In this document: one piece after another, positions 3,430 through 58,267 of the stretch
How the letters are laid out: each line of letters begins with the position of its first letter
How positions within the stretch are numbered: the first letter of the stretch is position 1
Origin: Thermoplasmata archaeon
Lineage (GTDB): Archaea > Thermoplasmatota > Thermoplasmata > RBG-16-68-12 > JAGMCJ01
Assembly (NCBI GenBank): GCA_046761045.1
Contig: JBHIFJ010000003.1
Span: 4,835-68,834, forward strand
Direction of reading: 5' to 3'
Length of the DNA stretch: 64,000 nt
Translations under genes and position numbers: made by a program
The notes under the pieces: generated by a model
What the model was told of the DNA's origin: nothing
The model's database searches: none
Seen by the model: only the letters and a program-made list of their open reading frames with translations

Positions 3430-3774
3430 ATGGAAGAAATGCTCAAGGAGTTGAGAAAATCGTGCGGAGCGGTTGCATCCGCTCTTGTTGGAAAGGACGG
3501 TCTAGTGATGTCGTCCGATGTTCCAGACGAAGTCTCCCTCGAGACGTTTGGAATCATGAGTGCGACAATAGTCGGAGCCAGTGTCACGGCCGCAACAGAA
3601 CTGGGAAGGGAGGAACCCTCAAAGGTGACTGTGGACACCGGAGATCTGAGGGTGCTGATCTACAATGCAGGCAAGCGGAGCCTCCTGGTCGTCGCTGTTC
3701 CAAGTGATAAGAGCACAGAGGAGGTCGACGAATCCGTCAAAGACATCCTGGCCCATGCGAGGGAGCCCAAGTGA
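3430..3774 (+). CDS. Roadblock/LC7 (MglB-like) domain protein
   Basis: The sequence ...GAVASALVGKDGLVMSSD...ETFGIMSATIVGAS...LRVLIYNAGKRSLLVVAVP shows the classic Roadblock/LC7 pattern. The gene directly follows the V4R gene. Confidence 0.7.
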   Translation: MEEMLKELRKSCGAVASALVGKDGLVMSSDVPDEVSLETFGIMSATIVGASVTAATELGREEPSKVTVDTGDLRVLIYNAGKRSLLVVAVPSDKSTEEVDESVKDILAHAREPK

Positions 3775-5593: not shown

Positions 5594-6039
5594 CTCCTCA
5601 CCTCCGCCAGGCTTCTGGCATTCTCATACTTCTCTGGAATGCCCTCCTCGTAGGTTATCGCCTCAAGCGAGCAGAACTTCACGCAGGTCGGGTCGCCGTC
5701 GCAGAGGTTGCACTTGAAGGCAACATCATTCCTCATGTGGATGGCATCGAAAGGACAGGCCTCGACACACTCCCCGCAGCCTATGCACTCCTCGCGAACG
5801 ACCTCAATCACAACACCGCTCACCTCCTTGATGCACTCGACCGGGCAAACCTCTGCGCATTCCTTGTTGCATGAGGCCCCCTGATTGCATACGACGGGAA
5901 CATTCCTGTCGATGCCCTTCCTGTGAACCCTTATTCGAGCCCATTCCTTGTTGGCGAGCTCTTCGTGATGAAGCGAGCAGGTCATCTCGCACATTCTGCA
6001 GCCAGTGCAGAGCTCCAAGTGCGGAACAATTGCCCTCAT
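5590..6039 (-). CDS. 4Fe-4S dicluster ferredoxin-domain protein (AOR partner)
   Basis: The 149-aa product has multiple CxxCxxCxxxC(P) motifs (CTGCRMCEMTC, CIGCGECVEACP, CNLCDGDPTCVKFC). It overlaps the AOR start by 4 nt. Confidence 0.85.
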   Translation of the reverse strand: MRAIVPHLELCTGCRMCEMTCSLHHEELANKEWARIRVHRKGIDRNVPVVCNQGASCNKECAEVCPVECIKEVSGVVIEVVREECIGCGECVEACPFDAIHMRNDVAFKCNLCDGDPTCVKFCSLEAITYEEGIPEKYENARSLAEVRR

Positions 6040-6123
6040 CCTATCCCCCTCTGAAATCTTTGGCAGGAATAAAAAGGCTGTTGTGTTGGAGCGAGCATAT
6101 CGCTTTCAATCGACAGCGAGATT

Positions 6124-42426: not shown

Positions 42427-43635
42427 GTGATTCTCCCCACTGCATTATTGCCTGTTTCAGCACCGGCGGATAATCCTCTCCAGGTGAATCTATCTGCGAT
42501 TGTGTGCGGGGCGTCCTGTCACCAGGGAGAGCATCATCCCTACTATGATGAGTGGAGACTGAGCGGCCACGCAGACTCATTGGACAATCTCAGGTTCGCC
42601 ATCGGAGCGGCGGAGGATTCTTGCCTTGAGTGTCATTCTGCCGACTACATCCTCGCCAACGCCTCAAGCAAGCCTGCGCTCGAGACCGCCAAGTACGGAA
42701 TCACATGTGCGCTTTGCCATGACCCGCACAACGCACAGAATCCGAGACAACTCCGCTGGCCTTCTGACGAACTTTGTGCGAAGTGTCACAACCCGGAGGG
42801 AGCGCTTCCCGGAGATCCGATATATCACCCCCAATCATCGATGAGGGATGGCAGAAGCGGAGCTCCCATTCTGGGCGAACCCTTCATGCCGGACGTTGAG
42901 TGCGCTGATTGTCACATGTACCAGCCTAACATCACAGGACACAGTTTCAGACCGAAGGCTGAGGCCTGCGTCGGATGCCACAGCAACTACTCGATCGAAA
43001 CTGCAGAGACCCAGATTAGTGACTGGGGAACCCAGACGTGGACGGTGATTGTTGAAGTCCACGAGACAGTTGTGCTTTCCGAAAGAGCGATTGAGGATGC
43101 CCCAGGCTACGGGTTCTCAGACAGTACCATAGACATTGCCGTGGACCTCTGCAATGAGGCGAACTACTCGTTATCCTTCGTCGTCGCTGATGGTAGCGGC
43201 GGTGCCCATAATCCCGCCTTTGCTAGTGCGCTCCTGAACTTCTCTGAGGATAGAAGCTATGAACTCATTGCACTTCTTACTCCAGGAACTGTGAGAGGCA
43301 GAGTCGTCGATGCCGCCGGCACTCCAGTCGAGGGCGTCCTTATTGAAAAGGACGGAAAAGTGTGGGGGACATCAGAGGACAACGGAACATTCGAGTTCAG
43401 GTTTGCCCCCGGTACCCATTCTTTTGACCTGAAGCTAAAAGGGTCCTCTGTTGGAAGCATGGATTCAGTCGTTGTCGGAGGCCAGGTGGCAAACGTTGGT
43501 GACATCGTTGCGACAGGTGAGGATTTGGGGGCTCTGATCCTCCTGGCCGTTGGCATCATCATCCTCCTGTCGACCATTGTTGTATACTTGCTTTTCAGAC
43601 TCAGGAAGTTGGGATCCCACAGAGAGGAGGACTAG
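42427..43635 (+). CDS. Membrane-anchored multihaem cytochrome c with a CarboxypepD_reg-like beta domain
   Basis: Five CxxCH motifs are present (CLECH, CALCH, CAKCH, CADCH, CVGCH) plus one CxxxCH (CGASCH). A VRGRVVDAAGTPVEGV...DNGTFEF domain and a C-terminal TM helix follow. The start is GTG and the N-terminal signal is weak. Confidence 0.8.
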   Translation: MILPTALLPVSAPADNPLQVNLSAIVCGASCHQGEHHPYYDEWRLSGHADSLDNLRFAIGAAEDSCLECHSADYILANASSKPALETAKYGITCALCHDPHNAQNPRQLRWPSDELCAKCHNPEGALPGDPIYHPQSSMRDGRSGAPILGEPFMPDVECADCHMYQPNITGHSFRPKAEACVGCHSNYSIETAETQISDWGTQTWTVIVEVHETVVLSERAIEDAPGYGFSDSTIDIAVDLCNEANYSLSFVVADGSGGAHNPAFASALLNFSEDRSYELIALLTPGTVRGRVVDAAGTPVEGVLIEKDGKVWGTSEDNGTFEFRFAPGTHSFDLKLKGSSVGSMDSVVVGGQVANVGDIVATGEDLGALILLAVGIIILLSTIVVYLLFRLRKLGSHREED

Positions 43636-43935: not shown

Positions 43936-44334
43936 TCACAGGCTCAGCTTTTCAGAGATTGACTTCCTCAGCTCGTCGACACCAGTGCCCTCGACATCCA
44001 AGCCAAGGGCTTTGGCAACCGCCACGACACCCTTCTTGTTTGCCAGGTCGACGGCATCCATTACTTCGATACTCAACTGATCGTCAGTCCTGCCCTTTGT
44101 GCTGATGTTGAGGGCCCTTGCAGCTCTCATCACCATAGATTCTCCGGGAATAGCCCCTCCACTCTCATATGATTGTCTCAATTCCCTTTCGATTTCCATC
44201 CTTCCTCTTCGAAACTCTCCCATCGCCTTTCCAAGTGCTCTGGCAAGTTCCGGAATCTTTCGTGCTCCAAAGAGGAGAACGAGCACAATGACTAAAAGGA
44301 CAACCACCTCGGGTCCAGGATCAAAGAGTCCCAT
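43936..44334 (-). CDS. tatA: Twin-arginine translocase TatA/E with an extended C-terminus
   Basis: The N-terminus LLVIVLVLLFGARKIPELARALGKAMGEFRRG is the canonical TatA TM helix, hinge and amphipathic helix. Confidence 0.8.
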   Translation of the reverse strand: MGLFDPGPEVVVLLVIVLVLLFGARKIPELARALGKAMGEFRRGRMEIERELRQSYESGGAIPGESMVMRAARALNISTKGRTDDQLSIEVMDAVDLANKKGVVAVAKALGLDVEGTGVDELRKSISEKLSL

Positions 44335-44393: not shown

Positions 44394-45230
44394 CTACTGC
44401 CCCGAACCATTCTTCCCACCGCCTTTTTCCATTCTCACAGATAGAGAGTAGCCCAGAGCATAGAGAGCGAGCATGGGTAGTGATACCATCATCATGGTTA
44501 TTCCGCTCCCATCAGGAGTAATTACCGCACCAAAGATAAATATTGCTACTGCCGAGTATCTCCAGTTTCTCCTCCAGAAGCGCGCATCGACCACACCCAG
44601 AAACGTGATTCCACTCATTATGATTGGCAATTCGAAAGCAAGGCCGAAGGAAAAGAGGAAAAGGAGAGTGAAATCGACAAACTCTGATGGATTCAAATAC
44701 GTATTGTCCACGAGATTGAAGGCGATGGAATAAAGGAAGTCATATACGAAGGGGAGTACAAACATATAGGCAAAGACTGCACCTGTAATGAAAAGCAATG
44801 CAGAGGGAACGGAGATTTGCAGTAGAAGCCGTTTTTCTCTGCGCCTCAGAGCTGGCGCGAGGAACCTCCCCATCTGGTGGACGATTACGGGCATGGCGAA
44901 TAGAATCGAAAGAAACAGAGCGATTTTGAACTCGACAAGGATGGCATCCGTGGGACCCATAACAGCTGTTTCCACTCCTTCAGGTACGAGGTCAGCCTCC
45001 ATTTTTCCAAAGAACTGAATGGCAATTGGATGGAAGACATTCACGGTCGGGTAGACAACTGGGAGACCTAGGACTTGGGTTGTATCCGCTTCCACCAGAA
45101 TGAAGATAACAAAAAGGAGCATGATGACCGCCAATATCCTGAGGATTCTCTTTCTGAACTCGTCAAGATGGTCCAGGAACCCCATCTTTGCGCCTTCCTT
45201 CATATCTTCGACCCCGGCTCCAGCCTCCAC
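44394..45230 (-). CDS. tatC: Twin-arginine translocase TatC
   Basis: The FLDHLDEFRKRIL N-terminal motif is followed by six TM segments. Confidence 0.85.
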   Translation of the reverse strand: MEAGAGVEDMKEGAKMGFLDHLDEFRKRILRILAVIMLLFVIFILVEADTTQVLGLPVVYPTVNVFHPIAIQFFGKMEADLVPEGVETAVMGPTDAILVEFKIALFLSILFAMPVIVHQMGRFLAPALRRREKRLLLQISVPSALLFITGAVFAYMFVLPFVYDFLYSIAFNLVDNTYLNPSEFVDFTLLFLFSFGLAFELPIIMSGITFLGVVDARFWRRNWRYSAVAIFIFGAVITPDGSGITMMMVSLPMLALYALGYSLSVRMEKGGGKNGSGQ

Positions 45231-45512: not shown

Positions 45513-46856
45513 CTACTGCTCACTTGTCTCAGCCGAGATTAGCACTTCTTCTGACACATGCTCATCAGCGGCTGGAGCCTCTGAGACCTCCCATACCGAA
45601 ATGATGGGGAAGATCTTCGTGAACAACAGAAAGAGAAATGCGAACCCCGCCAAGGCGCCAGCAGTTATCGACCATTCGACCCATGTTGGTACATACGATC
45701 CCCACATCATTCCAATCTGAGGCCGCGCTAGAGCTGGAACAGTGATTATGAAGCGTTTGATCCACATACCTATGTTTACAAGGACTGAGGCAAAGACGAC
45801 ACCGGTGATAGTTCTGGTTCTTGGTATGGCGAGGATGAAGGCAGGTATGACCAGCCCTCCTATCACGAAAGTCCAGAAGTAGAGCGCATATGAACCGCCA
45901 AAGATTGCCTCCAGTAATTCGGCTTCGCCTTCCATCCCCACATATCCAGAGGTCAAGTATTCGCTTACAGTGAAGTACATGTACGCAATGTTAAGTGTTA
46001 GGAGCATTAGTCCGAGGTACTGGAAGTGACGAGGCGTCAGGAAGTGCTCAAGGCCATAGACTTTGCGGAGTATTGCCATTGCGATGATTATCGATGCAAT
46101 GCCCGAGAAGATTGCACCGACAACGAAATAGGGCCCGAATATTGTGCTGTGCCAACCCGCTCTCGACGTCATTCCGAATATCCACGATACGACTGTGTGG
46201 ACGGAGACAGCGATAGGCACTATCAAAACTGCCATTATGCCTATTCCCCGTTCCAGTCTCTTCTTCTGTTCCTCAGTTGCTTTCCAATTCAGGGAAAGCA
46301 CACTGTAAAGTTTCATTCTCCAAGGAGAGACATTCTTCAACTTCTCCTTGCATCTCGCGAGATCTGGAATCATTGGAAGGTAGAGATAGATGATGCTCCC
46401 ACTAATGTAGGTCGCAATGGAGATGAAGTCCCAGAGGATTGCCGACTGCATTCTACCGAAGAGAAGGATATGATGCAGTCGGTCTGGGCGGCCCATGTCC
46501 ACGATGATCATGGAAGCACCTATGACGAGGGCAAAAACGGTGATGGCCTCCGCCATTCGGGTGATAGGCCTTCTCCACTCAGCCTTAGTGAGCCTCAGAA
46601 TCGCAGAGATGAGGGTTCCCGCATGACTTATTCCGATGAAGAAGACGAAGTTTGTGATGTACAAGCCCCAAATCACTATGTCCCACATCCCAGTAACCGC
46701 AAGACCTTCGGAGAGCTGGACATAGTACGCGTAGATGCCTATGGAGATAATCACGAGGAGGATTGCGAATGTTCCGTAGAACCCCCTTCCTGAGCCTATC
46801 AGGGGCCTGAAGATGATTTCTTCCATCTCGTCCTCAGTCAGGGAATCCTTGTCCAT
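45513..46856 (-). CDS. NrfD/PsrC-family quinone-interacting membrane subunit (10-helix type)
   Basis: The 447-aa product has about ten hydrophobic helices. Its N-terminal region (YGTFAILLVIISIGIYAYYVQLSEGLAVTGM...VIWGLYITNFVFFIGISHAGTLISAILRL) is typical of the NrfD family. Confidence 0.75.
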   Translation of the reverse strand: MDKDSLTEDEMEEIIFRPLIGSGRGFYGTFAILLVIISIGIYAYYVQLSEGLAVTGMWDIVIWGLYITNFVFFIGISHAGTLISAILRLTKAEWRRPITRMAEAITVFALVIGASMIIVDMGRPDRLHHILLFGRMQSAILWDFISIATYISGSIIYLYLPMIPDLARCKEKLKNVSPWRMKLYSVLSLNWKATEEQKKRLERGIGIMAVLIVPIAVSVHTVVSWIFGMTSRAGWHSTIFGPYFVVGAIFSGIASIIIAMAILRKVYGLEHFLTPRHFQYLGLMLLTLNIAYMYFTVSEYLTSGYVGMEGEAELLEAIFGGSYALYFWTFVIGGLVIPAFILAIPRTRTITGVVFASVLVNIGMWIKRFIITVPALARPQIGMMWGSYVPTWVEWSITAGALAGFAFLFLLFTKIFPIISVWEVSEAPAADEHVSEEVLISAETSEQ

Positions 46857-46868
46857 TTCTCACCAACT

Positions 46869-47630
46869 CTAGCTGCGGGGAAGGTAGTACACTCTTGGGT
46901 GCGTGCCAAACTCTTCTTTGAATCTGTAGGCATACCTCTCCTTGGTTACCTCTGAGACTCTCAAGAGATCCTGACCGTTCGACACGGCATCTTCAGCCAA
47001 GTCACCGTAGTATATCGCCCCTGAGGGACAACCAGAAACGCAAGGGGGAAGCAGCCCTTTCTCACCATGAGTTACACAGAAATCGCATTTCTCAACCACA
47101 CCTCTCTGGTGTGGCCAGGGCTCTTCCGGAGAGTACTCGTGTGACAGCTCCTCTGGAGTGTGTGGAGGCTCGCTCCAGTTGAAGTATCTAGCGGAATAGG
47201 GGCATGCGGTCATACAGTATCGACAACCTATGCACCTGTTGTGGTCTATGAGCACGATTCCGTCCTTCCTCCGGTATGTTGCGCCAACAGGACACACATT
47301 TCGGCAAGGAGGGTTCTCGCAATGCATGCAGGGTCTTGGGAAGTTGTAGGATGGCGCGAGGGGGTTGTCGCGTATTCTGTATACCTTGATCCACTCTTGG
47401 TTGAATGGAATGAAATGAGCATCTTGACAGGCTTTCGTGCAGGCACCGCATCCATCACACTTGTCCAGGTCGATGATCATCCCCCACTTCCTCTGTGAGA
47501 GCTCCCTTTCTGTCAATGCCTCAACGGATGGGAGAAGCCTTTGGAAGCCTGTGATGCCCAACAGGGAAGCACCGATTCCAGCCCCGGCGAGGCCTACTAT
47601 CTTGATGAAACGTCTTCTATCCATGCTCAT
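46869..47630 (-). CDS. Tat-exported 4x[Fe-S] subunit (NrfC/PsrB/DmsB/ActB2-like)
   Basis: I place the start at ATG 47630 (MSMDRRRFIKIVGLAGAGIGA, a twin-arginine signal), which overlaps the upstream stop as ATGA. Four Cys clusters are present (CDGCGACTKAC, CMHCENPPCRNVCP, CIGCRYCMTACP, CDFC..C..C). Confidence 0.85.
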   Translation of the reverse strand: MSMDRRRFIKIVGLAGAGIGASLLGITGFQRLLPSVEALTERELSQRKWGMIIDLDKCDGCGACTKACQDAHFIPFNQEWIKVYRIRDNPLAPSYNFPRPCMHCENPPCRNVCPVGATYRRKDGIVLIDHNRCIGCRYCMTACPYSARYFNWSEPPHTPEELSHEYSPEEPWPHQRGVVEKCDFCVTHGEKGLLPPCVSGCPSGAIYYGDLAEDAVSNGQDLLRVSEVTKERYAYRFKEEFGTHPRVYYLPRS

Positions 47631-48649
47631 GGTCTCCCTCGACTCGACTCTTCCTTTCCCGCTTTGGAGATTCGATGAAGTTGATATAGGACATAGGCGA
47701 AAGTCAGCCATACCCCCAGAACCACGCTTATGACAACAGCAACGATTTCAAGCGGCGCCCCGCCTATGAGAAGAGGTTGATCCTCCTCCGGTGCAAGAAT
47801 GCCTATTTCCGCGGTTGCGTTTGACGATTCCAGGAGGGACGTGCCCTCGAAATAGGCCTCCACTTCGAAGATTCCCCTTTCAGACGCCGAATCCAGATGA
47901 TATGCGTAGCCGTCATTGTCGGTTGCATTTGACCCTATTTGTAGCTTGCCGTATGTCGTCATCCTGAAGAAGATCACCTCAAAGCCCACTAGCGGGTCTC
48001 CCTCCATGTCTGTCAGCCTCGCGGAAATCGTGAATGATTCATCTCGCTGAACCTCTGCTGGAGCGACCAAGGTCATGTTTGTGGCCTCCTGGGGAAGACC
48101 AGTCACAACAAAGGTCAGGGCCTCGGCTTCTTCAAACCAAGGATCAGAGTTTCCGCCATGATGCACCCGAGCGGTCAGATTATAAGTCCCTCCACTGAAT
48201 GGAGCCAGCAAAAGCCATTCAAAGGAAACCGTCGAGCCCTCTCCGGGCGAAGTCTTCTTGACGTAGTTGTTTGTGGCACCGTTTGGATCCGTTACGATTC
48301 TCCATCCATCGGTTGACGGCTGATCAGAGTCGCTACCCGTCATGGATTTAAGGAGAAAGACACCGATTATCAGTTGGCTGGAAAGAAGATCCTCGGTCAC
48401 ATTGACGATTACGGTTACCTCCTCATTTGGCTCCGGAGTCAGAGTCGAGGCCCATATCTCCACAATGCCCGAACCTCTTCGGGGCTCCCCCGTATGGCAG
48501 ACGCATCCACCATAGCTGAATTTTCCGTCACCCGCACCTCCCGAAAAGCTACTAACCCCGCCAATGAGCAGAATCTGTACGACCACCAAGGCAAGAATGA
48601 CCAAAGCCGGAATCCTCTCCTTTCCCGTTCTTGAGCCTCTGAACGCCAT
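47627..48649 (-). CDS. Doubly anchored surface protein with a C-x-C-H motif and an Ig-like domain (function unknown); first large gene of the NrfCD operon
   Basis: The 340-aa product has an N-terminal TM helix, YGGCVCHTGEP, a beta-rich domain of about 150 aa, a Big_1-like block (FTISARLTDMEGDPLVGFEVIF...DNDGYAYH) and a C-terminal TM helix. Confidence 0.65.
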   Translation of the reverse strand: MAFRGSRTGKERIPALVILALVVVQILLIGGVSSFSGGAGDGKFSYGGCVCHTGEPRRGSGIVEIWASTLTPEPNEEVTVIVNVTEDLLSSQLIIGVFLLKSMTGSDSDQPSTDGWRIVTDPNGATNNYVKKTSPGEGSTVSFEWLLLAPFSGGTYNLTARVHHGGNSDPWFEEAEALTFVVTGLPQEATNMTLVAPAEVQRDESFTISARLTDMEGDPLVGFEVIFFRMTTYGKLQIGSNATDNDGYAYHLDSASERGIFEVEAYFEGTSLLESSNATAEIGILAPEEDQPLLIGGAPLEIVAVVISVVLGVWLTFAYVLYQLHRISKAGKEESSRGRP

Positions 48650-48697
48650 GAAGCTACTTCCTTTTCCAGCTAGATCCTGATTTCGTTGCCATCTCTC

Positions 48698-48817
48698 CTA
48701 TTCTTTTTTCTGGGAACCCCTTGTCCCGGTCTCAGCGTTGTCACTTCTGACCTCAGCCGTAAGCGCAATTAGCGCTACTGCGAAGAGGAATACAGCAAGA
48801 AGTACCGAAGCATTCAC
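48698..48817 (-). CDS. Possible single-TM micropeptide upstream of the NrfCD operon
   Basis: The reverse strand encodes (V)NASVLLAVFLFAVALIALTAEVRSDNAETGTRGSQKKE. Only GTG or CTG starts are available, and AGGAGG lies upstream. This ORF is not in the ORF track. Confidence 0.25.
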   Translation of the reverse strand: MNASVLLAVFLFAVALIALTAEVRSDNAETGTRGSQKKE

Positions 48818-48924: not shown

Positions 48925-49470
48925 ATGTATCCGCCTCGTCCAAGCAACTTGGTTCTCCACACCTTTTTCGAGGACCAATCCTCTCTCTCATCGCATTCGG
49001 GAACCACTTCTAGCTATGTAGTCACAGTGACAGGCGGTCCATCGATTACATATGGATACTACGTCGTCTTCATCGATCCAGATGGCAGAAGCATAGACTC
49101 TCTGGGCAATCTCCTGTTCAATGTTGGGCCCAATTCCGTCACCAGGGTCGGAGAAACCAACACCTTCGTTGTTGAGTTTGAATCGCCCAGGTACGCAGTG
49201 GACCTGACCATGAAAGTCTCGGCGGTCTCTGCCGATAATAGTCTCAATCCTCTTGGGGATGGATGGAATTACACCACCAAGGAGGTTGGGGTTGAGTATC
49301 CAGTCAGTTCGGAGTTTCCAGGTCTTGACATATCATCATCGATTTATCTGATCGGGACATCCATACTGTCTCTTGGTCTCCTGTTTTGGCTCACTATCTT
49401 TTTCGTTGACAGAAAGATCAAGAAGGAGGTGGTTTACACTGGAAGAGAAGCTGAAGAAGGAAATGAGTAG
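48925..49470 (+). CDS. C-terminally anchored protein of unknown function; first gene of the Rieske/cyt b operon
   Basis: The 181-aa product has no N-terminal signal and a beta-rich body, and ends with one TM helix (IYLIGTSILSLGLLFWLTIFFV) and a short charged tail. Its stop overlaps the Rieske ATG (ATGAGTAG). Confidence 0.55.
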   Translation: MYPPRPSNLVLHTFFEDQSSLSSHSGTTSSYVVTVTGGPSITYGYYVVFIDPDGRSIDSLGNLLFNVGPNSVTRVGETNTFVVEFESPRYAVDLTMKVSAVSADNSLNPLGDGWNYTTKEVGVEYPVSSEFPGLDISSSIYLIGTSILSLGLLFWLTIFFVDRKIKKEVVYTGREAEEGNE

Positions 49471-50005
49471 AAGAGACTTCATCACGACGGCGGCCAAAGG
49501 AGCAGTCGTGGCAGGTCTCGGTCTTGCCTCAGTTGAGGCCGCCTATCTCTTTAGCTTCTTCGGAGCGACACCGGGCTTTATGCCCGATTGGAAGGGAGTT
49601 CTTCCCGAGCTGGACGGTGATGGCTTCTTGGTCTTCAAAGAGGTGTTTGTCACTGAGGATGAAGTCCTTGAGGTTATCGAAAAGACAGGTAGTTTCATTT
49701 TCCTCTTCCCCGGAGTGTTTCACGGAAGAAGTGAAACGCTTCCTGGGTTGGTGTCCAGGGACGGTGAGGGGATTTTGCATGCAGCATCCAGGAAGTGCAC
49801 GCATGAAGGATGCCTAGTGGACTTCCGAGACGATATTGTGGTCGGCTCGAAAAGCCTTCAGAAGATATGGTATTGTCGCTGCCACGATGCGGTGTTTGGC
49901 TCTCAAAACGGTGAGGTTCTGGCTGGTCCGCCTCCATCGTCGCTTCCCCAGTTTGACATAGAGATCATTGGCGATGGAGCAAAGATCAAGCTAGTTGAGC
50001 GGTGA
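49464..50005 (+). CDS. Rieske 2Fe-2S protein with a twin-arginine signal
   Basis: The N-terminus MSRRDFITTAAKGAVVAGLGLA is a Tat signal. Cluster box I is CTHEGC and box II is CRCHDAVF. Confidence 0.85.
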
Positions 50006-50735
50006 TTCGGTGAGAGTAGCTGACAAACTGCGGTTGCCTGACTTCCCCAAGCTCTTTCAAAGAATGATGGGCTGGATACTGAAGAGCGCTGGAATGGAAG
50101 ATACGGTGGGGCACCAGCTACTCAAGGGCGTCCCCAGGCATGCCAGGAATCCCATGTACTGTCTCGGAGGCATAACCCTGGTTGCTTTCGTCATACAGGC
50201 AATGAGCGGTGTCTTTCTCGCAACCTACTATGTGCCGTCCGTCGATCATGCCTGGGACAGCATTAGATACATCGAGCAGAACGTCGCATTCGGATACATA
50301 ATCAGGAATATACATCGCTGGACAGCGAACATAATGGTAGTCGCGCTTGTCCTTCATACTCTGAGGGTATACTTCACAAGGGCCTTCAGATCTCCCAGAG
50401 AACTCACCTGGATGATAGGTGTCATGCTCTTCTTCCTAACAGTTGGTGTGGCATTCACAGGGTACACTCTTCCTTGGGATCAGCGTGCCTATTGGGCAGC
50501 AACAGTCGGCACGAACTTGATCACCGCATTGAGCGGCACACCTTTCATAGGCTCGAGGCTGGACCCCCTCACTGTGTTCCTCAGAGAGATTTTCATAGGC
50601 GGTGGCGAGATCGGACCCTCGACCCTGACACGCTTCTACGGTTTTCATATTCTTGTCTTCCCTGGAAGCATCATGCTGTTTATGCTCATTCACTTCTATC
50701 TTGTCAGAAAGCATGGAATTGCAGGTCCTCTGTGA
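49995..50735 (+). CDS. Cytochrome b, N-terminal (b6-like) four-helix subunit
   Basis: The haem-ligand His pairs lie in NIHRW...LHTLRVY and GFHILVF...LIHFYLVRKHG, and the PWDQ motif is present. The start is TTG 49995 or GTG 50010. Confidence 0.85.
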   Translation: MSGDSVRVADKLRLPDFPKLFQRMMGWILKSAGMEDTVGHQLLKGVPRHARNPMYCLGGITLVAFVIQAMSGVFLATYYVPSVDHAWDSIRYIEQNVAFGYIIRNIHRWTANIMVVALVLHTLRVYFTRAFRSPRELTWMIGVMLFFLTVGVAFTGYTLPWDQRAYWAATVGTNLITALSGTPFIGSRLDPLTVFLREIFIGGGEIGPSTLTRFYGFHILVFPGSIMLFMLIHFYLVRKHGIAGPL

Positions 50736-50746
50736 GGGTGTGAAGA

Positions 50747-51196
50747 ATGGTCGCTAGGAAGAGAAAGATTGAACCCGGAGCGCTGAGGTCACGCCCATTC
50801 TGGCCGGGATTCCTAATGGAGGAGCTGGCAGCTCTGATTGTGTTTCTCGGATTTGTGCTGCTGTTGGCCTCCGCTCTCCATCCTTCAATGGTCTTCGAGC
50901 CCGGGCTCAGGAGTACGGAACTCAGAAGGTTGGAATCACCAGCTGACCCGTTCACTACCCCTCCTAGAATCCTCCCCGAGTGGTATTTCCTTGCGACCTA
51001 CGAACTGCTGAAATTCATGGCCCCTTGGTTGGCAATGATGCTGGTTGGCCTTTTCTCGATTGGCTTTTTCCTCGTGCCCTTCATAGACAGATTCCTCTCT
51101 AGGTTCCGCATCGGGGACTGGATAATGAGATTCTCGGGCATTGGAATCGTCATTCTTTTCATAGTTCTCACGCTTAGGGGGATGGGTCTGATTTGA
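50747..51196 (+). CDS. Cytochrome b C-terminal domain / subunit IV-like protein
   Basis: The Qo-site PEWY motif is present (ILPEWYFLATYELLKF), with three TM helices. Confidence 0.8.
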   Translation: MVARKRKIEPGALRSRPFWPGFLMEELAALIVFLGFVLLLASALHPSMVFEPGLRSTELRRLESPADPFTTPPRILPEWYFLATYELLKFMAPWLAMMLVGLFSIGFFLVPFIDRFLSRFRIGDWIMRFSGIGIVILFIVLTLRGMGLI

Positions 51197-52180: not shown

Positions 52181-52391
52181 TTGACTCCAACATCGCTGAA
52201 GTGATATAATTCTGTTGAGCTTGTGAGACGCCCCTTTTCCTCCGTCGCGAACAGATTCCTCATGACTCGATGGACGCGCCAAGATGCACGACATATGACA
52301 GACTTTATAACCGAGCTTTGAGATTCCTGCCTTGGGAGGAAGGAGTTCCCGCCTGGCACCGTATCTTCGCCGAGTTCGCCAGTTCCTCTCA

Positions 52392-53135
52392 ATGGTCGGT
52401 AACATGAGGAATGGGGAGAGAAGTCCGCAGCCTGTTGCCATAGAAGCCGAGAATCTGACGAAGAAGTTCGGATCGATAACGGCCATTCGCAGCCTGAGCC
52501 TTAAGGTCTTGCGTGGTCAAGTCTCCACTCTCTTCGGACCTAACGGTGCAGGGAAGACGACACTCATAAGGATTCTCAGCACACTTTCCCGCCCGACGTC
52601 AGGGAGCATCCATGTGGATGGAATGGACGCCTCCAACAACGGAAGAGAGGTGAGGAGGAGAATCGGAGTCGTTCTCCACGAACCTCTGCTCTATGACGAC
52701 CTGACAGCCGCTGAGAACCTCAGGTTCTACAGCAGGATGTACGGTGCTCGTGTGACGAGAGTCGACGAGCTCCTGGACACCTTCGGATTGAGGCACAGGA
52801 GAAACGACAGAGTCGCCACACTCTCGAGCGGTATGGTGAAGAGATTGTCAATAGCCAGAGCGATGGTTCACAATCCCGAGATTCTGATATTCGATGAGCC
52901 CTTCTCGAGCCTGGACACTGATTCCATCCGGAAGGTGATATCATTGATAGACGCTCTTCGTGGTGAGGGAAAGACGGTTCTTCTTGCGACACATCACCTC
53001 AGTGAGGGCTATGAGGTCGGTGAGCGGCTCATCGCCATGAGAAAGGGGCGGATTGTCTTTGACAAGAGGAAGACTGAGATGAGTCTCGGTGTCTTCGAGG
53101 CCGCGTATGAAGAACTGACGGGGGCGGGTGCTTGA
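52392..53135 (+). CDS. ccmA: Haem exporter ATPase CcmA
   Basis: The Walker A motif (GPNGAGKTT), signature (LSSGMVKR) and Walker B (ILIFDEP) are present. The gene is followed by ccmB and ccmC. The start is uncertain (ATG 52392 or ATG 52404). Confidence 0.8.
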   Translation: MVGNMRNGERSPQPVAIEAENLTKKFGSITAIRSLSLKVLRGQVSTLFGPNGAGKTTLIRILSTLSRPTSGSIHVDGMDASNNGREVRRRIGVVLHEPLLYDDLTAAENLRFYSRMYGARVTRVDELLDTFGLRHRRNDRVATLSSGMVKRLSIARAMVHNPEILIFDEPFSSLDTDSIRKVISLIDALRGEGKTVLLATHHLSEGYEVGERLIAMRKGRIVFDKRKTEMSLGVFEAAYEELTGAGA

Positions 53136-53809
53136 CTCTTGGCGCGTTGAGGATTGCGCAGAAGGATCTGAACATAGAACTGAGAACAAGGGAGAGGATG
53201 ACGTCCATGATTCTGCTGAGCCTAGTCATAGTCCTGTCCTTCAGGTTCGCCTTCTTCGGTTTCGATGTGGACCTCAGTGAAAGCCCTGAATTGGTGGCTC
53301 CCATTCTGTGGACGACGATATTCTTCGCGGGGGTCATGGGCCTGGAGTCCTCTTTCTCCTATGAGAAGGAAAACAAGTACCTTGATGGACTCCTTCTGCT
53401 TCCCACGAGCCGATATTCAATCTACCTGGGGAAGATGCTCTCCAACCTCTTGTTCCTGATTGCGATAGACATCGCGACGCTTATCTTCGTCGTCGCATTC
53501 TTCGCCTACGATCCTGGAGGCTCCTTCCTTGCCCTGTTCGGTGTCGTTCTCCTCGGGACCTTCAGCTTCGTCGCTATGGGCACTCTTGTCTCAGGTATGA
53601 CAATTAGCGCTAGGGCCCGCCAGGCTCTCCTCCAAATCGCGCTCATCCCGCTTATCGTCTTCACTATCGTAATCCCTGCCGTCGTGGCAACATCGAAGGT
53701 CGTGTTGGGAAGCGGCGACCTTGGGCCGGAACTCAGAATCTTGGGCGGGTTCGGGATACTAAGTCTGCTCCTTGCCTACGTCTTGTTTGGTTATCTTCTG
53801 GAGGGATAA
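53132..53809 (+). CDS. ccmB: Haem exporter membrane protein CcmB
   Basis: The 225-aa product has six TM helices and begins with the AQKDLNIELRTRE-type N-terminus typical of CcmB. Its start overlaps ccmA by 4 nt. Confidence 0.75.
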   Translation: MTLGALRIAQKDLNIELRTRERMTSMILLSLVIVLSFRFAFFGFDVDLSESPELVAPILWTTIFFAGVMGLESSFSYEKENKYLDGLLLLPTSRYSIYLGKMLSNLLFLIAIDIATLIFVVAFFAYDPGGSFLALFGVVLLGTFSFVAMGTLVSGMTISARARQALLQIALIPLIVFTIVIPAVVATSKVVLGSGDLGPELRILGGFGILSLLLAYVLFGYLLEG

Positions 53810-53810
53810 C

Positions 53811-54776
53811 ATGGAAAGAAGGAAGATGCTGGATCTTGTGATTGGGACTTTGGCCGTAGCTCTTGTGTGCGCGACCATCCTCGCGGCTTTCTACTACGCC
53901 CCACTTGAGCCCTTGGATGTATCTACCGTTAAATACAACGAATCAGACTACACAGACGGAGACATACGTGTGAAGGGAGTCGTTCAGAGCCTTTCCGGGA
54001 CTGACTTTTCCCTTAGGGATGTGACATCCAACGATACGCTGGACGTTTCCTATACTGGCTCGGACGACCTCGCCTCTCGGATTGCGAACGGAGACACTGT
54101 CTATGTCCTCGGAGAATATGAGCCAGGCGAAGGTCTGACAGTTAGGGAAGTGGAGATTGCGGATGACCCTGGCGAACCAGCAGGTTGGACATCGCCTTAC
54201 TCCGCGAAGATATTCTACCTTCACGTTCCTGCGGCGTGGACCTCATTCCTCGCCTTTGGCATCGTCCTCGTTGGCAGCGTAGTATATCTCTGGAGAGGTG
54301 ATCAGAAATGGGATATCTGGGCTCTTTCCTCGGCTGAAGTGGGACTGGTATTCTGCACGGTCGCTGTCATCTCTGGAGCCTTGTGGGCCAGGGCTGAGTG
54401 GGGCTACTACTGGAATTGGAGCGACACGAAGCTCTTTTCAACGTTTGTCCTATGGCTTGTGTTCATTGCGTACGTGGCCATAAGGAGCGGGGCGGTAAGG
54501 CATGAAAGCATACCACGGGTGGCCGCAATCTTCGGCATATTGGGATTCGCCGCTGTGCCCATATCATTCGTTTCATCAAGGATTTGGACAAGCATTCACC
54601 CCAATGTGATTGCCACATCTCAAGGCCATCTCTCTCCAGAAGCTGGGACGGTTCTGCTGCTGGGGGTTCTTGCCTTCACGTCCGTCTACGCGACACTTTT
54701 TTCTATGCGGACTGCAATAGAGAGGTCAGCGGTTGAGATTCAGAACCTAAAGGAGAAGTTGGAGGCGGGAGAATGA
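53811..54776 (+). CDS. ccmC: CcmC haem lyase/exporter with an OB-like insertion of about 90 aa in the first external loop
   Basis: The external His motif IFYLHVPAAW, the Trp-rich motif WGYYWNWSDTKL and a second external His (SIHPN) are present. The insertion lies between FYYAPLEP and the first His. Confidence 0.8.
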   Translation: MERRKMLDLVIGTLAVALVCATILAAFYYAPLEPLDVSTVKYNESDYTDGDIRVKGVVQSLSGTDFSLRDVTSNDTLDVSYTGSDDLASRIANGDTVYVLGEYEPGEGLTVREVEIADDPGEPAGWTSPYSAKIFYLHVPAAWTSFLAFGIVLVGSVVYLWRGDQKWDIWALSSAEVGLVFCTVAVISGALWARAEWGYYWNWSDTKLFSTFVLWLVFIAYVAIRSGAVRHESIPRVAAIFGILGFAAVPISFVSSRIWTSIHPNVIATSQGHLSPEAGTVLLLGVLAFTSVYATLFSMRTAIERSAVEIQNLKEKLEAGE

Positions 54777-54916
54777 TAGGCGTTGAGCAGTTCTACTGGG
54801 CCTACCTAATCATCTGGGCCGGAATCGTCCTCTATGTGCTATTTCTCACTCATAAGCAGAGCAAGATAGAGGAAGAGATCGACTTACTCAAGGAGGTCAT
54901 GGAAAGTGGAAAGTGA
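54773..54916 (+). CDS. ccmD: CcmD-like small membrane protein (47 aa)
   Basis: This ORF is too short for the ORF track. Its ATG overlaps the ccmC stop (ATGA). It encodes MIGVEQFYWAYLIIWAGIVLYVLFLTHKQSKIEEEIDLLKEVMESGK, a single TM helix plus a charged tail. It sits between ccmC and ccmE. Confidence 0.6.
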   Translation: MIGVEQFYWAYLIIWAGIVLYVLFLTHKQSKIEEEIDLLKEVMESGK

Positions 54917-55304
54917 GGAACCGGGGAAGCCGAAATATGGGGCCAAGAAGAAGCTGGTTCTCCAGATCGTCGCCGTCCTCGCGATTATTGTCGTCCTTGT
55001 CGTGATTTTCTTGAGTTCCGCGCCAGCTGACCCCTACGACACGGTAGGCATGGTGATGTCCAATCCATCGAAATACGTCAATGAGAATGTGGAAGTCAGA
55101 GGGAGAGTTGAGGCCTGGTCTCCTTCCTACAGAACATTCAACCTGACAGGGGACGGCGAAACAGTGGCTGTCAGCTATGACGTTCTTCCTGATGCATTCG
55201 CAAACGGGAAGGATGTCGTGGTCAAGGGCTTGTTTCACCACAATGGAATCACCTATCAGATAGATGCGAGCGATATCATAGTTGGGTGCTCATCGAGATA
55301 CTGA
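54906..55304 (+). CDS. ccmE: CcmE haem chaperone, archaeal variant with a C-x-x-x-Y haem-binding motif
   Basis: The product has an N-terminal TM anchor and an OB-fold body (VEVRGRVEAW...FNLTGDGETVAVSYDVLPDAFANGKDVVVKG). The C-terminal motif is VGCSSRY in place of HxxxY. The start is GTG. Confidence 0.8.
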   Translation: MESEEPGKPKYGAKKKLVLQIVAVLAIIVVLVVIFLSSAPADPYDTVGMVMSNPSKYVNENVEVRGRVEAWSPSYRTFNLTGDGETVAVSYDVLPDAFANGKDVVVKGLFHHNGITYQIDASDIIVGCSSRY

Positions 55305-55327
55305 GGATCACGGGATTGGGCGGTGGC

Positions 55328-55963
55328 ATGAGAAGAATCGCCTTGACTGCTGTTGTCCTTCTTGGATTGGGCCTGGTTCTCCTTCTCTCCCTTGACTTCT
55401 ACGTTGCTGAAACGGCCTCCGCTGCCGATTTCACGGTCATGGACATCGATGGCAACGATTTTACTCTCTCTGATAACAGGGGCAAGATCGTCCTTCTGGA
55501 GTTCATGACCATCGATTGCCCGTCATGCGCGGACCAGACGGAGAAACTCAAGCCTGTGAGGGAGAAGTATGACGAGACAGAAGTCATCATTATCTCATTG
55601 AGTGTCAGTCCCCTTGACAACGCCAGCACTCTGCAGGACTATCGAAACGCTCACCAAGCTGACTGGATGTTCGCGGCGGACGTCGAGGACGTCGCCTACT
55701 CCTATGGCGTTGACTCGGTGCCACATATGTGCATAATCAGCGGTGACGGCAGAATAGCATCCACCTATTCGGGCCCGCCCTTGGGTGCAGATGAGGTTTC
55801 CAGCAGAATCGACCAAGCGATTTTCTTGACAGACCCGGTGAGAACGATTGCCTTGCCCGTGCTCTCTCTCGGTCTGATATTGGCGGCGCTCTGCCTGCTC
55901 ATCTTTCTTGGCTACACGAAGAGGAGCATCATAAAGGAGCAACTGTTCGGCGGAGCCAAGTAA
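55328..55963 (+). CDS. Membrane-anchored thioredoxin-like protein (CcmG/TlpA/ResA-like)
   Basis: An N-terminal TM helix is followed by a thioredoxin fold with the active site CPSC (LLEFMTIDCPSCADQ). A C-terminal TM helix is also present. Confidence 0.75.
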   Translation: MRRIALTAVVLLGLGLVLLLSLDFYVAETASAADFTVMDIDGNDFTLSDNRGKIVLLEFMTIDCPSCADQTEKLKPVREKYDETEVIIISLSVSPLDNASTLQDYRNAHQADWMFAADVEDVAYSYGVDSVPHMCIISGDGRIASTYSGPPLGADEVSSRIDQAIFLTDPVRTIALPVLSLGLILAALCLLIFLGYTKRSIIKEQLFGGAK

Positions 55964-55964
55964 C

Positions 55965-56192
55965 CTACTTCTCCCGGGCTCGCTCGATTCCCTCATCCGG
56001 GTACTTGTAGAATCGGTACGTGATCACTGCGAACGCCAGGACTATGAAGGCCACCCCAATGAGAAGGATGCTCTCCTGGTACCTGCTGGCGAGTCCTCTA
56101 AGGATTCCGTACAGAAACGCACTTGCGCTCAACGCAAAGAGGACGACGATTAGAACCAGCATGACTGAAAACCTGGTCTCATCGATCTTCAT
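55965..56192 (-). CDS. Small two-helix membrane protein
   Basis: The 75-aa ORF is preceded by GGGAGGAGAGG directly upstream of its ATG. Confidence 0.45.
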   Translation of the reverse strand: MKIDETRFSVMLVLIVVLFALSASAFLYGILRGLASRYQESILLIGVAFIVLAFAVITYRFYKYPDEGIERAREK

Positions 56193-56279
56193 CGCCTCTC
56201 CTCCCTACTAGCGGTTTCCACCTCCAAGAACATCAGTTGCCTCTTCTGTCTTCCACCAAGCCTGTCAACGTTGTAGAAG

Positions 56280-56525
56280 ATGGTTGCGACTGAGTATACC
56301 AGCACTGCGGTTGCGCACAAGCTCATTCGCATCATCTACTCCATGATGATCGAGAGGAAGGAGTACGAGCATCTGACTGAGAGGAATGTTATGAAGAAGA
56401 AGCAGGCAATGAGGCGGAGGTCCTCCAAGGTGAGGGAACGGGATCTCTCCTCCACTATCGGGAACTTCACCCCGGAGGTCCTCGACAAGATTAAGAAGGA
56501 GGTTGCGTTATCTTCAATGGCATAA
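56280..56525 (+). pseudogene. C-terminal fragment of an IS110-family-like transposase
   Basis: The fragment ATEYTSTAVAHKLIRIIYSMMIERKEYEH resembles the conserved ..A(I/V)VA.ARKL..I(I/V)(Y/W).ML.. C-terminal helix of IS110-type transposases. An in-frame stop lies 2 codons upstream of its ATG, and no catalytic N-terminal part is present. Confidence 0.4.
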
Positions 56526-56729
56526 GGGTTTTTCAGAGGAGTGACAGGAGACACAGTCATCGTCTCTCGTGCCAAAGAAATCGTTGGACGCGTCCGTTCC
56601 TCCAATGCTGGGCTCGGTCTTCACATGGGCATAGGCCATCAAGAGGATGAATGCGGCAAGGCATGCGATGAGGAACCTCGTCCATGGGGTTCCTCTCATG
56701 CTTCTCAAGGACCTTGACATTCCACCCAT
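56514..56729 (-). pseudogene. Truncated membrane-anchored c-type cytochrome (NapC/NrfH-like N-terminus)
   Basis: The 71-aa product has a TM helix (WTRFLIACLAAFILLMAYA), then DDDCVSCHSSEKPLCH-stop. The ORF ends 10 residues after its only CxxCH motif and abuts the transposase fragment. Confidence 0.4.
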
Positions 56730-56779
56730 GAGTATAACGCCGCATTATGTCATAAAGGTTACCACGTGGGCGGGGAAGA

Positions 56780-58267
56780 CTAGCCCTTTCTCTGATCGAG
56801 TCTCTTCATTATTTCTATGGCCCGCTTCTTGTAATCCCCGACCAACTTCTCGTAGACGCTCTCAGAAACCTCTCCATCGTCCCTTTTCTTCTGAATTTCC
56901 TTTATCGCCCTCAGCAACTTCTGCTTTTCATCCTTGAGGGCCACTAGCTCTGGATCCTCGCCTGTTTCCTCCACTTCCTTCAGCTCCGATTCGTACTTGC
57001 CTTTCAGGTCTTCATAGAACTTCTCAGAAATGTGACCCGCAGAGAAGGCCGCTTCCGCCTCCTCAAGTGCCGCCAGTATCTCATCCCTCCTCGCCTCGCT
57101 AGGGCCATTGCCCTCATCCTCCTCACGTGTCTCCTTTCTTTTCTTCATCATCAGGGCAACGAGGAGGACGGTTACGACGAGCAGTGCAATCCCCGAGACT
57201 ACCAGCAGGGAGAGATTCTCCGCTTCCTCCCCCCACTCAATGATTACCTGCATACTTTCCCCTGCCTCAAGGGCTCCAACTATGACATGGAAGTCCACTT
57301 CACCTTGGTTGTGCTCCCAGTGCACGAAGTCCGCGGGAGGAGTTATATCTGTCCCCTCGTTTGTGAACAGCCACAGACTGTATTCTGTCACGTTGTATAG
57401 GACGGTCTTATTGAATATCATTGATTTTTTGATGTCACCCCTTGCCTCCAAGCTGAGGCGATATGGTATCTCAATGACCGTCTTGTACGGCGGCAGCCCC
57501 ACGACAAGCTTGAAGGATTTCGTCTCATACGCCTGCAATGTCGTGTTGTCGATTTCTGATCCGTTGTCATAGATGTGCGCGGTCCAATTCGTCGGTAGGC
57601 CTTTCACCGACAAGAAAATCGTCTGATTCCACGATTCTTCGTTTGTGACGTTTATCGTCTGGTTGGTCAATATCATCTCTGGAATCACGCTCTGAGACCG
57701 AATTCGTGTATCCATGCGTTCTTGGTCTGCCCACACCGTCACCCCGTGTCCCCCTTGAACCGAGGTCCTTGTCTCGTTTTCCAGCCCAACCGTGATGTTG
57801 ATCGGGATGGAATGCCAGGAGGAGCCGTTCGCGTTGGAGGCATTGAGCTGAAGAAACGCTTCCTGTCCGAAATAGGAGAGCATCTCTCCTTCGCTGAATG
57901 GGGTGAAGGAAATCACATCCTCATCAGATGCCAATCGGATAAACGAAAAGCATCTGAGATCTGATCCGTCAACCACTTTCACGACCATGCCCGCAGGATT
58001 CGGACACATCGACGAGAGCACAAGAGCCGATTGGGGCAGCCACGAATAGAGGGTTCCATTGAATGGTGAGTTTCCGCTGTTGTTGAAGTATATCCTTTCC
58101 GTTATTCCGAAGGTTGTGTAATCAGAGGCCTGTTCCATGTTGATTGCGTACACATCAGTCTCGAAGCCACGAGTTTCAACGCCGTTTGCCGTTGCATTAC
58201 TGATTGTGGGGAGGGCAAGAACGGAAGTGATGCATAGCAAGGCATAGAGAGGGGTCTTTCCTTTCAT
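56780..58267 (-). CDS. Sequon-rich surface protein with a TM anchor and a cytoplasmic tail carrying two SHOCT-like repeats; coupled to ccmF
   Basis: The product has a signal peptide, an ectodomain of about 340 aa with many N-x-S/T sequons, and a TM helix. The tail contains GHISEKFYEDLKGKYE and GEVSESVYEKLVGDYK. Its ATG overlaps the ccmF stop (ATGA). Confidence 0.6.
   Translation of the reverse strand: MKGKTPLYALLCITSVLALPTISNATANGVETRGFETDVYAINMEQASDYTTFGITERIYFNNSGNSPFNGTLYSWLPQSALVLSSMCPNPAGMVVKVVDGSDLRCFSFIRLASDEDVISFTPFSEGEMLSYFGQEAFLQLNASNANGSSWHSIPINITVGLENETRTSVQGGHGVTVWADQERMDTRIRSQSVIPEMILTNQTINVTNEESWNQTIFLSVKGLPTNWTAHIYDNGSEIDNTTLQAYETKSFKLVVGLPPYKTVIEIPYRLSLEARGDIKKSMIFNKTVLYNVTEYSLWLFTNEGTDITPPADFVHWEHNQGEVDFHVIVGALEAGESMQVIIEWGEEAENLSLLVVSGIALLVVTVLLVALMMKKRKETREEDEGNGPSEARRDEILAALEEAEAAFSAGHISEKFYEDLKGKYESELKEVEETGEDPELVALKDEKQKLLRAIKEIQKKRDDGEVSESVYEKLVGDYKKRAIEIMKRLDQRKG

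Follow-up and report, generated by a model that had tools for sequence, protein, structure and literature searches.

We analyzed 64,000 nucleotides from a Thermoplasmata archaeon (assembly GCA_046761045.1, contig JBHIFJ010000003.1, positions 4,835 to 68,834; hereafter, the window), focusing on a reverse-strand operon in which the gene for a 340-amino-acid (aa) protein precedes those for an NrfC-type iron-sulfur (FeS) protein and an NrfD-type integral membrane protein (Table 1). The window also carries the housekeeping genes Nop and aIF-2B and is therefore part of an archaeal chromosome, in which the section from 42 to 61 kb constitutes a respiratory and cytochrome island. The open reading frame (ORF) listing placed the genes of the operon on the strand, in the order, and at the positions given by an earlier reading made from the letters alone (hereafter, the sequence-only reading). 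This agreement includes the ATGA at 47627-47630, within which the start codon of the FeS gene overlaps the stop codon of the 340-aa gene. The longest FeS ORF extends to 47711; the ATG at 47630 is the sensible start because it sits before the twin-arginine motif (MSMDRRRFIK) and forms this overlap with the upstream stop codon.

Table 1. Features of the NrfC/NrfD operon and its surroundings in the window.
Feature	Positions	Strand	Basis or remarks
340-aa protein, proposed third subunit	47627..48649	-	Signal peptide or first transmembrane helix, C-x-CH loop, head, Big_1 immunoglobulin (Ig)-like domain, C-terminal transmembrane anchor, basic tail
N-terminal hydrophobic helix, residues 15-33	48551..48607	-	Hydropathy
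C49-V-C51-H52, putative contracted haem-c attachment site	48494..48505	-	
Beta-sandwich head, residues about 36-185	48095..48544	-	NF041895 profile, AlphaFold2 domain model
H164 in RVHHGG stretch, candidate second axial haem ligand	48158..48160	-	Conservation
Big_1 domain and transmembrane helix, residues 190-340 (GVWLTFAYVLYQLHRI), conserved putative docking module	47630..48082	-	blastp, hidden Markov model (HMM)
NrfC-type Tat-exported protein, four FeS clusters, ActB2/DsrO-like	46869..47630	-	Pfam, NCBIfam, RRRFIK motif
NrfD-type integral membrane quinone-interacting subunit, ActC-like	45513..46856	-	PF03916
TatC, downstream of NrfD, co-oriented	44394..45230	-	Pfam
TatA	43936..44334	-	Pfam
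39-aa ORF, GTG start	48698..48817	-	Probable relic, not an independent gene
Multihaem cytochrome c, 402 aa, CarboxypepD_reg domain and C-terminal transmembrane anchor	42427..43635	+	Pfam, motifs
Divergent cluster: truncated head paralogue (181 aa), Rieske, cytochrome b, cytochrome b C-terminal subunit	48925..51196	+	Pfam, NCBIfam
CcmA, CcmB, CcmC, CcmE, thioredoxin-like protein	52332..55963	+	Cytochrome c maturation genes
CcmF-like haem lyase	58264..60948	-	

At 90% identity, the 340-aa family comprises 14 clusters, all from metagenome-assembled genomes (MAGs) of uncultured Thermoplasmata or Methanomassiliicoccales-related archaea, and a scan of GTDB genomes returned only three loci, all of them in Thermoplasmata/Methanomassiliicoccales MAGs. 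Wherever a relative's locus is represented by enough sequence (L001, L002, L006, L007, L009, and L010), the orthologue lies directly upstream of NrfC, which is followed by NrfD, and it overlaps NrfC by 1-4 bp. Both the synteny with NrfCD and the translational coupling to NrfC put forward in the sequence-only reading are thus retained in all relatives' loci that are long enough to display them. In addition, a multihaem cytochrome of about 530-575 aa with a C-terminal transmembrane anchor is encoded directly upstream of the orthologue wherever upstream sequence is available. Genes for MobB-like, TatC, and TatA proteins usually come after NrfD in the relatives; TatC follows in the same order as in the window, where 283 bp separate NrfD from TatC, in L001, L006, L007, and L010. 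The gene located between NrfD and TatC in L001 (13247-13957), L006 (4090-4836), L007 (13270-13980), and L010 (13273-13983) encodes a MobB-like P-loop protein whose C-terminus bears an FeS motif; the window has none.

The 340-aa protein carries five N-x-S/T sequons and, according to hydropathy, one hydrophobic helix near each end, the C-terminal one at residues 302-320. The sequence-only reading had described the protein as doubly anchored. Its two hydrophobic ends are indeed present, but permanent N-terminal anchoring may be wrong: an A/G/S-x-x-GG stretch follows the N-terminal helix across the family, and the helix resembles a signal peptide. Judging from these sequence features, the helix is probably a Sec signal peptide that would be cleaved rather than a lasting anchor. 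In an AlphaFold2 (AF2) model, for which 14 relatives were used, two beta-sandwich domains lie between the two helices, at residues about 60-185 (hereafter, the head) and 190-285, in agreement with the beta-rich and Big_1-like domains read from the sequence. The second of them corresponds to a sub-threshold Big_1 match in Pfam.

The FeS protein (253 aa) contains 16 Cys residues in four ferredoxin-type motifs (Pfam Fer4_11). It resembles PsrB, ArrB, and the B2 part of ActB (ActB residues about 770-950), and it scores 211 bits against NCBIfam DsrO (cutoff 200). NrfD matches PF03916 at 8.7e-37. A search of the PDB with NrfD revealed ActC of alternative complex III (ACIII), with a match of 1.5e-68 to chain 6f0k_C over residues 32-436, nearly the full length, and of 1e-65 to the second ActC structure in the comparison of ACIII structures 6F0K and 6BTM, whereas ActF is matched at only 5e-4. 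No PsrC chain is found among the five PDB matches of NrfD at E<=0.001. ActC has 10 transmembrane helices; a crude hydropathy scan of NrfD yields overlapping peaks rather than a clean count of transmembrane segments.

Close homologues of this NrfD number in the thousands, at 55-63% identity, and occur in Heimdallarchaeota, Thaumarchaeota, Chloroflexi, and others. The proteins encoded next to NrfCD in three of these lineages carry a cupredoxin-like head in Thaumarchaeota (L014, 341 aa), a DOMON head (PF03351, above threshold) in Heimdallarchaeota (L016, 390 aa), and a class-I cytochrome c head with a CAACH motif in Chloroflexi (L015, 352 aa); class-I cytochrome c heads match PF13442/PF00034. What these partners have in common with the 340-aa protein is the C-terminal half, namely a Big_1-like domain plus a transmembrane helix with the pattern VW.T[FY].YV.Y. 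(alignment A5; hereafter, the module). In blastp, the 340-aa protein matches the Thaumarchaeota partner at 6e-21, the Heimdallarchaeota partner at 9e-21, and the Chloroflexi partner at 1e-9.

We then gathered 80 metagenome loci via NrfD and screened the ORFs they contain with a module HMM. Of the 80 loci, 41 proved to have the module beside NrfD, usually directly downstream, while 17 were too short to tell; those listed among the remaining 22 are largely ACIII-type operons, in which genes for a protein with five CxxCH motifs and for a Tat protein of ~800 aa accompany those for an FeS protein of 227 aa, NrfD, and a tetrahaem protein. The total from the HMM survey is 49 loci, from several phyla, in which the module adjoins NrfD or is fused to it. 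A by-eye count of the head types in module loci gave about 13 DOMON-like, 5 class-I cytochrome c, and 5 cupredoxin-like heads (L014, L028, L050, L081, and L086), and the head type of the 340-aa protein was confined to Thermoplasmata in this survey. In several loci, NrfD, an extra transmembrane helix, Big_1, and the terminal transmembrane helix occur within one ORF (L059, 515-2683; L070/L071, 4953-6902; L079, 2314-4356), which constitutes direct evidence of physical association. In a neighbor-joining tree of 90 NrfDs, calculated without support values, all module-bearing loci, including the window, are separate from all ACIII-type loci, and the module-bearing NrfDs form a sister clade to the ACIII-type operons. 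A molybdopterin subunit is present in the ACIII-type clade and was found beside none of the 49 module-bearing loci. The description of NrfC/NrfD as an orphan pair, as given in the sequence-only reading, does not hold, since NrfD is closest to ActC and falls in a large clade in which this third subunit is always present. The 340-aa gene, on the other hand, is a genuine partner: its adjacency to NrfC and the overlap recur in the relatives, and homologues of its module adjoin NrfD in other phyla. Given that a DOMON, class-I cytochrome c, or cupredoxin-like domain occupies the equivalent position elsewhere, we consider it very probable that the 340-aa protein is the redox-head subunit of an NrfCD complex.

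Profile and structure searches, which the sequence-only reading had suggested as a check, add the following about the head itself. It scores 22.6 bits against the NCBIfam profile NF041895, "choice-of-anchor V" (cutoff 42), whereas the scores of its paralogues and relatives, for alignments spanning the whole profile, range from 26 to 79 bits, with 55 and 79 bits exceeding the cutoff. The head and all paralogues align across nearly the whole profile, and the head is, by profile similarity, probably a divergent branch of NF041895. The library entry supplies a domain name without a functional description, and a link between this domain and haem or respiratory complexes appears to be undescribed. 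No Pfam model covers the head, and no cytochrome family was matched by the 340-aa protein or by 52 members of the family; a PDB sequence profile search with the family alignment A1 likewise gave no significant match. A model of the head alone reached a predicted local distance difference test score (pLDDT) of 82.5 and a predicted template modeling score (pTM) of 0.81. Foldseek searches of the PDB with the whole model and with the head alone returned no cytochrome f, DOMON, or EB_dh match and only generic beta-sandwiches (TRAP-beta, YcnI, CARDB, and AmoB), and the model-based fold search thus gave no functional assignment. A relationship of the head to DOMON was considered but is not claimed: hhalign gave a probability of 89.6% with full-length sequences, driven by the shared Big_1/transmembrane part, versus 7.9% with the head alone, and Pfam found no DOMON in the 52 members. 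If the head is a cytochrome, its fold would be new for cytochrome c.

The only two Cys residues of the 340-aa protein are C49 and C51, and H52 follows directly; this CVCH motif lies after the N-terminal helix, just where the sequence-only reading had located it. All three residues are invariant in the 14 closest relatives, 2 of which have C-x4-CH rather than C-x-CH. A profile search of 1.8 billion representative proteins yielded 859 matches, of which 101 match the head domain. Conservation of the motif, on which the sequence-only reading had staked its proposal beforehand, extends to 89 of these 101 homologues, in which C-Xn-CH occurs at the equivalent place with n = 1 (19), 2 (11, i.e., the canonical CxxCH at the aligned position), 3 (50), 4 (7), or 5 (2). 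Among 97 head homologues, C49 is conserved in 95, C51 in 87, H52 in 95, and H164 in 85. Moreover, C51 and H52 are the sole invariant columns in an alignment of 52 homologues at 20-32% identity (alignment A3), which, together with the invariance in the closest relatives, indicates that the motif is not a chance occurrence. Even within a single genome, head paralogues carry CX1CH, CX3CH, CX4CH, and CX6CH.

A Cys spacing that drifts around a fixed Cys-His, with canonical CxxCH in some members, argues for haem c and not for a metal site, as ligand geometry fixes the spacing in metal sites. The sequence-only reading had maintained that C-x-C-H is not a recognized haem-c motif. This is contradicted by PMC7096707, which cites Ferousi et al. 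2019 (JBC 294:16953) for CKCH as a functional contracted haem-c motif. According to the same source, a tetrahaem cytochrome of Kuenenia stuttgartiensis binds haem covalently through the same spacing; there, the site serves one of four haems in a bacterial multihaem protein, whereas in the 340-aa protein it would hold the sole haem of an archaeal beta-sandwich. The motif loop is the least confident part of the AF2 model, as expected for an apo haem loop. In addition, the multihaem cytochromes of these clusters contain CX4CH (CQQSGCH) and CX3CH (CGASCH) sites, and the local maturation machinery evidently handles unusual spacings. Based on these sequence patterns, covalently bound haem is the likely cofactor of the head, and H164 is likely its second axial ligand.

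Maturation of c-type cytochromes is encoded beside the 340-aa gene, since a Ccm system consisting of CcmA, B, C, E, and F and a thioredoxin-like protein (52332-60948) is located 4-12 kb away. CcmE (54906-55304, plus strand) ends in GCSSRY and thus has CxxxY rather than HxxxY, which is reportedly the archaeal variant of this protein. The multihaem cytochrome at 42427-43635, which has five CxxCH motifs and one CGASCH, is likely an electron partner, and a Rieske/cytochrome b/subunit IV cluster at about 49463-51196 diverges from the 340-aa operon.

On balance, we favor the view that the 340-aa gene encodes a single-haem cytochrome c of a new, membrane-anchored type, which would serve as third subunit in a widespread relative of ACIII that is so far undescribed and whose outward redox domain varies among lineages. 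Such a membrane complex would contain three subunits, i.e., the 340-aa protein, the Tat-exported four-cluster NrfC, and the ActC-like NrfD with the quinone site, and the Big_1 domain and C-terminal helix would dock the 340-aa protein to NrfCD. The Tat signal of NrfC, the Sec-type N-terminus and sequons of the 340-aa protein, and the fusion architecture argue for an outward orientation of NrfC and of the two domains of the 340-aa protein, and the C-terminal helix would lie in the membrane with NrfD. The head would bear a single covalent haem c attached via C49 and C51, with H52 as one axial ligand and H164 as the likely second. We infer from this arrangement that quinol would be oxidized at NrfD and that electrons would pass through the four clusters of the NrfC FeS chain to the single haem of the head, from there to the anchored multihaem cytochromes encoded alongside, and finally to an external acceptor. 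Flow in the reverse direction, as in Qrc, may also be possible. By analogy with ACIII and Qrc, this path and function are the most likely ones.

The closest known counterpart is the ACIII of Rhodothermus marinus (6F0K) and Flavobacterium johnsoniae (6BTM), with which the operon shares an ActC-like NrfD, a B2-like FeS protein, a predicted outward placement of FeS protein and cytochrome, and the gene order cytochrome-FeS-NrfD; the presumed activity, quinol:cytochrome c oxidoreductase, would also be alike. Unlike ACIII, the window operon is without the molybdopterin-like ActB1 domain and without an adjoining ~800-aa Tat protein, and its ORFs and their Pfam matches include no pentahaem ActA, ActD, monohaem ActE, or second NrfD-like ActF. 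In place of the ACIII cytochromes, it is predicted to have a single-haem beta-sandwich on a stalk of Big_1 and a transmembrane helix. Genes for a periplasmic cytochrome c, an NrfC-type protein, and an NrfD-type protein also follow one another in the DsrJOP part of DsrMKJOP and in QrcABCD. However, NrfD scores 130 bits against DsrP (cutoff 350) and 55 against QrcD, and DsrJ and QrcA are multihaem all-alpha cytochromes, whereas the 340-aa protein is a predicted beta-sandwich monohaem protein. The Pfam matches of the neighboring ORFs that were scanned, without a DsrMKJ-specific search, include no DsrM/K/J-type protein, and no QrcB is found near the window operon. The sequence-only reading had held that the slot of a molybdopterin subunit or multihaem cytochrome is taken by a different kind of protein; the position of the slot stands, but its occupant is most likely itself a cytochrome c, one of unfamiliar fold.

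Single-haem extracytoplasmic electron-exit subunits of quinol oxidoreductases with a C-terminal transmembrane helix are familiar from cytochrome f, cytochrome c1, and Sulfolobus CbsA, and cytochrome f combines a beta-rich fold with a haem motif about 20 residues from its mature N-terminus. The 340-aa protein showed no sequence or Foldseek similarity to these three proteins. They partner Rieske/cytochrome b, whereas the 340-aa protein partners NrfCD, and a paralogue of the head family adjoins Rieske/cytochrome b in the relatives.

Several observations weigh against a haem-bearing head. Haem binding is itself a prediction, and none of the cytochrome families in Pfam is matched by the head. The two-Cys motif is missing from 12 of the 101 head homologues, which have AxxCH, C-x-[AVFS]-H, or C-xn-KH instead, and H164 is replaced by Tyr in 5 and by Phe in 2 of 97 homologues. 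Members of the head-domain family also occur in Poseidoniales. Furthermore, the cluster in the window is rearranged, and both its adjoining multihaem cytochrome and a paralogue are truncated. Two further points, the copper protein YcnI and AmoB among the Foldseek matches of the head and about 16 module proteins of other lineages that have no head or carry extra Ig repeats, weigh in the same direction and also bear on alternatives considered below.

Instead of haem, the Cys and His residues might bind copper or another metal, making the head a cupredoxin- or YcnI-like one-electron carrier, or a metal-handling domain, on an NrfCD scaffold. Besides YcnI and AmoB, this alternative can draw on the cupredoxin-like heads of five sister complexes and on those head homologues that retain one Cys plus His only. 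The Foldseek matches, though, have TM-scores of 0.4-0.5, typical of generic Ig-like folds, and metal sites rarely tolerate ligand spacings from x1 to x6, which haem-c sites do. With the canonical CxxCH aligned in 11 homologues and the family situated in gene clusters where multihaem cytochromes and Ccm genes abound, we regard a metal site as unlikely. Somewhat less probable still is a non-redox role, in which the 340-aa protein would be a structural or docking subunit, i.e., an Ig-like stalk that stabilizes NrfCD or tethers multihaem cytochromes, with the Cys pair forming a structural disulfide. Both of its extracellular domains are Ig-like, one orthologue is named "Ig-like domain-containing protein" by NCBI, and the headless module proteins imply that the core of the complex does not strictly need a head. 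A disulfide, however, leaves unexplained the near-invariant His after the second Cys as well as the substitution of the head by DOMON, cytochrome c, and cupredoxin domains in sister complexes.

The idea that NrfCD anchors a molybdopterin (Psr/Ttr/Dms-type) or NrfA-type reductase encoded elsewhere, with the 340-aa gene as an unrelated co-transcribed surface protein, is in keeping with the "molybdoenzyme membrane anchor" label that NCBI and JGI give to NrfD homologues and with the nrfD-dmsB pairs that Zinke et al. left unresolved in related Thermoplasmata, but it is highly improbable, as NrfC has its own Tat signal, some loci have the module and NrfD fused, NrfD matches ActC and no PsrC chain at E<=0.001 in the PDB, and neither the 49 module-bearing loci (molybdopterin subunit) nor the window operon and the relatives' loci (molybdopterin or NrfA subunit) have such a catalytic partner adjoining.

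We also considered a broader, combined proposal, which we advance tentatively and at slightly below even chances. The "choice-of-anchor V" domains may be widespread new beta-sandwich c-type cytochromes (CX1-6CH) and represent the missing c1/f-like exit carriers of Thermoplasmatota, including the marine Poseidoniales, which have Rieske/cytochrome b and are reported to lack a canonical bc1 complex. At the same time, NrfC, NrfD, and the Big_1/transmembrane stalk may make up an unrecognized respiratory family, sister to ACIII, in which evolution has repeatedly exchanged the head, the options being haem c, haem b (DOMON), copper, or no head at all.

In the relatives, the operon is one of several parallel modules. 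The first comprises a multihaem cytochrome, a head paralogue, and a 213-217-aa polytopic protein; the second, a multihaem cytochrome, a head paralogue, a shorter head paralogue, Rieske, and cytochrome b; and the third, a multihaem cytochrome, the 340-aa orthologue, NrfC, and NrfD. These modules occur in L001 (1-13101), L007 (1-13180), and L010 (1-13152), and the first two also in L008 (3058-12037); their anchored multihaem cytochromes are ~520-575 aa long. Such an arrangement recalls multiple quinol oxidoreductases tuned to different acceptors. Head domains were also seen in a conserved trio of genes in L011 (3246-7361), L012 (5574-9589), and L013 (5368-9691), encoding proteins of 808-878 aa and 359-381 aa and a membrane protein of 170-197 aa. 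In L011, the one trio that was read in sequence, the largest protein has a CSCH head, repeats, and a transmembrane anchor, the second has a CGGSCH head, and the membrane protein shows a weak DUF2231 match (E=0.002). Close homologues that came up in the same search carry the name Poseidoniales (Marine Group II), a group that has been reported to be without a canonical bc1 complex.

The 39-aa ORF upstream of the 340-aa gene, taken for a possible transmembrane micropeptide in the sequence-only reading, is conserved as a gene in no relative. Its position coincides with that of the C-terminal anchor of the multihaem cytochrome encoded upstream in the relatives, and in a DNA alignment with L009 its stop codon aligns with that of the relatives and the following intergenic stretch is conserved; transmembrane composition drives the scores that the peptide obtains against tails of multihaem cytochromes and N-termini of paralogues. 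From its position and the DNA alignment, this ORF is probably a relic of the C-terminal transmembrane anchor of a multihaem cytochrome, and it likely lies at a rearrangement breakpoint. More specifically, the block from the 340-aa gene through NrfC and NrfD to the Tat genes is inverted relative to the Rieske block when compared with the relatives. The 181-aa ORF upstream of Rieske (48925-49470, plus strand; NF041895, 31.8 bits) is a head paralogue that, relative to its 220-aa homologues, starts ~63 residues late; the missing part includes the signal peptide and a C-X6-CH motif, and the ORF is probably a truncated pseudogene. Compared with nine-haem homologues in L001, the 402-aa multihaem cytochrome is without about 129 N-terminal residues and the signal peptide. 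Its start lies 10 nt past a DUF6125 gene, which points to either an assembly junction or a second breakpoint. A single inversion was rejected as a model for the rearranged cluster because this cytochrome keeps its own C-terminal anchor. Given the rearrangement and the truncated genes, the local system may be partly decayed.

Some other features of the window were also recorded. CcmC (53772-54776, plus strand) begins with about 130 extra residues that resemble an OB-fold and are similar to CcmE. A fragment similar to the C-terminal end of an IS110-family transposase (56280-56525, plus strand) lies beside a 71-aa ORF (56514-56729, minus strand) with a signal peptide and CVSCH followed by a stop; this ORF has the look of a further truncated cytochrome, adjoining a mobile-element scar. 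An aldehyde:ferredoxin oxidoreductase gene at 3737-5593 (minus strand) is unrelated to the operon, and the adjacent stretch at 5734-6042 (minus strand) has a weak tblastn match to NrfC-type ferredoxin motifs.

The unusual subunit composition noted in the sequence-only reading is borne out by the searchable literature, in which we found no description of this complex or of such a set of subunits. The larger result, and what is new here, is that ACIII has a widespread sister family of three subunits, in which the redox head is exchangeable. If our view is correct, this family would add a quinol:acceptor oxidoreductase to the short list of bc1/b6f, ACIII, Qrc, and Nrf, and a plug-in redox head would explain the many "orphan nrfD-dmsB" pairs in studies of archaeal and Chloroflexi MAGs, such as that of Zinke et al. 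The 340-aa protein would likewise represent a new structural class of cytochrome c and widen the accepted range of haem-attachment motifs; cytochrome counts obtained by searching for CxxCH alone miss these proteins. Finally, in non-methanogenic Thermoplasmata of sediments, the complex would provide a route from the quinone pool to surface multihaem cytochromes, which bears on extracellular electron transfer in archaea.

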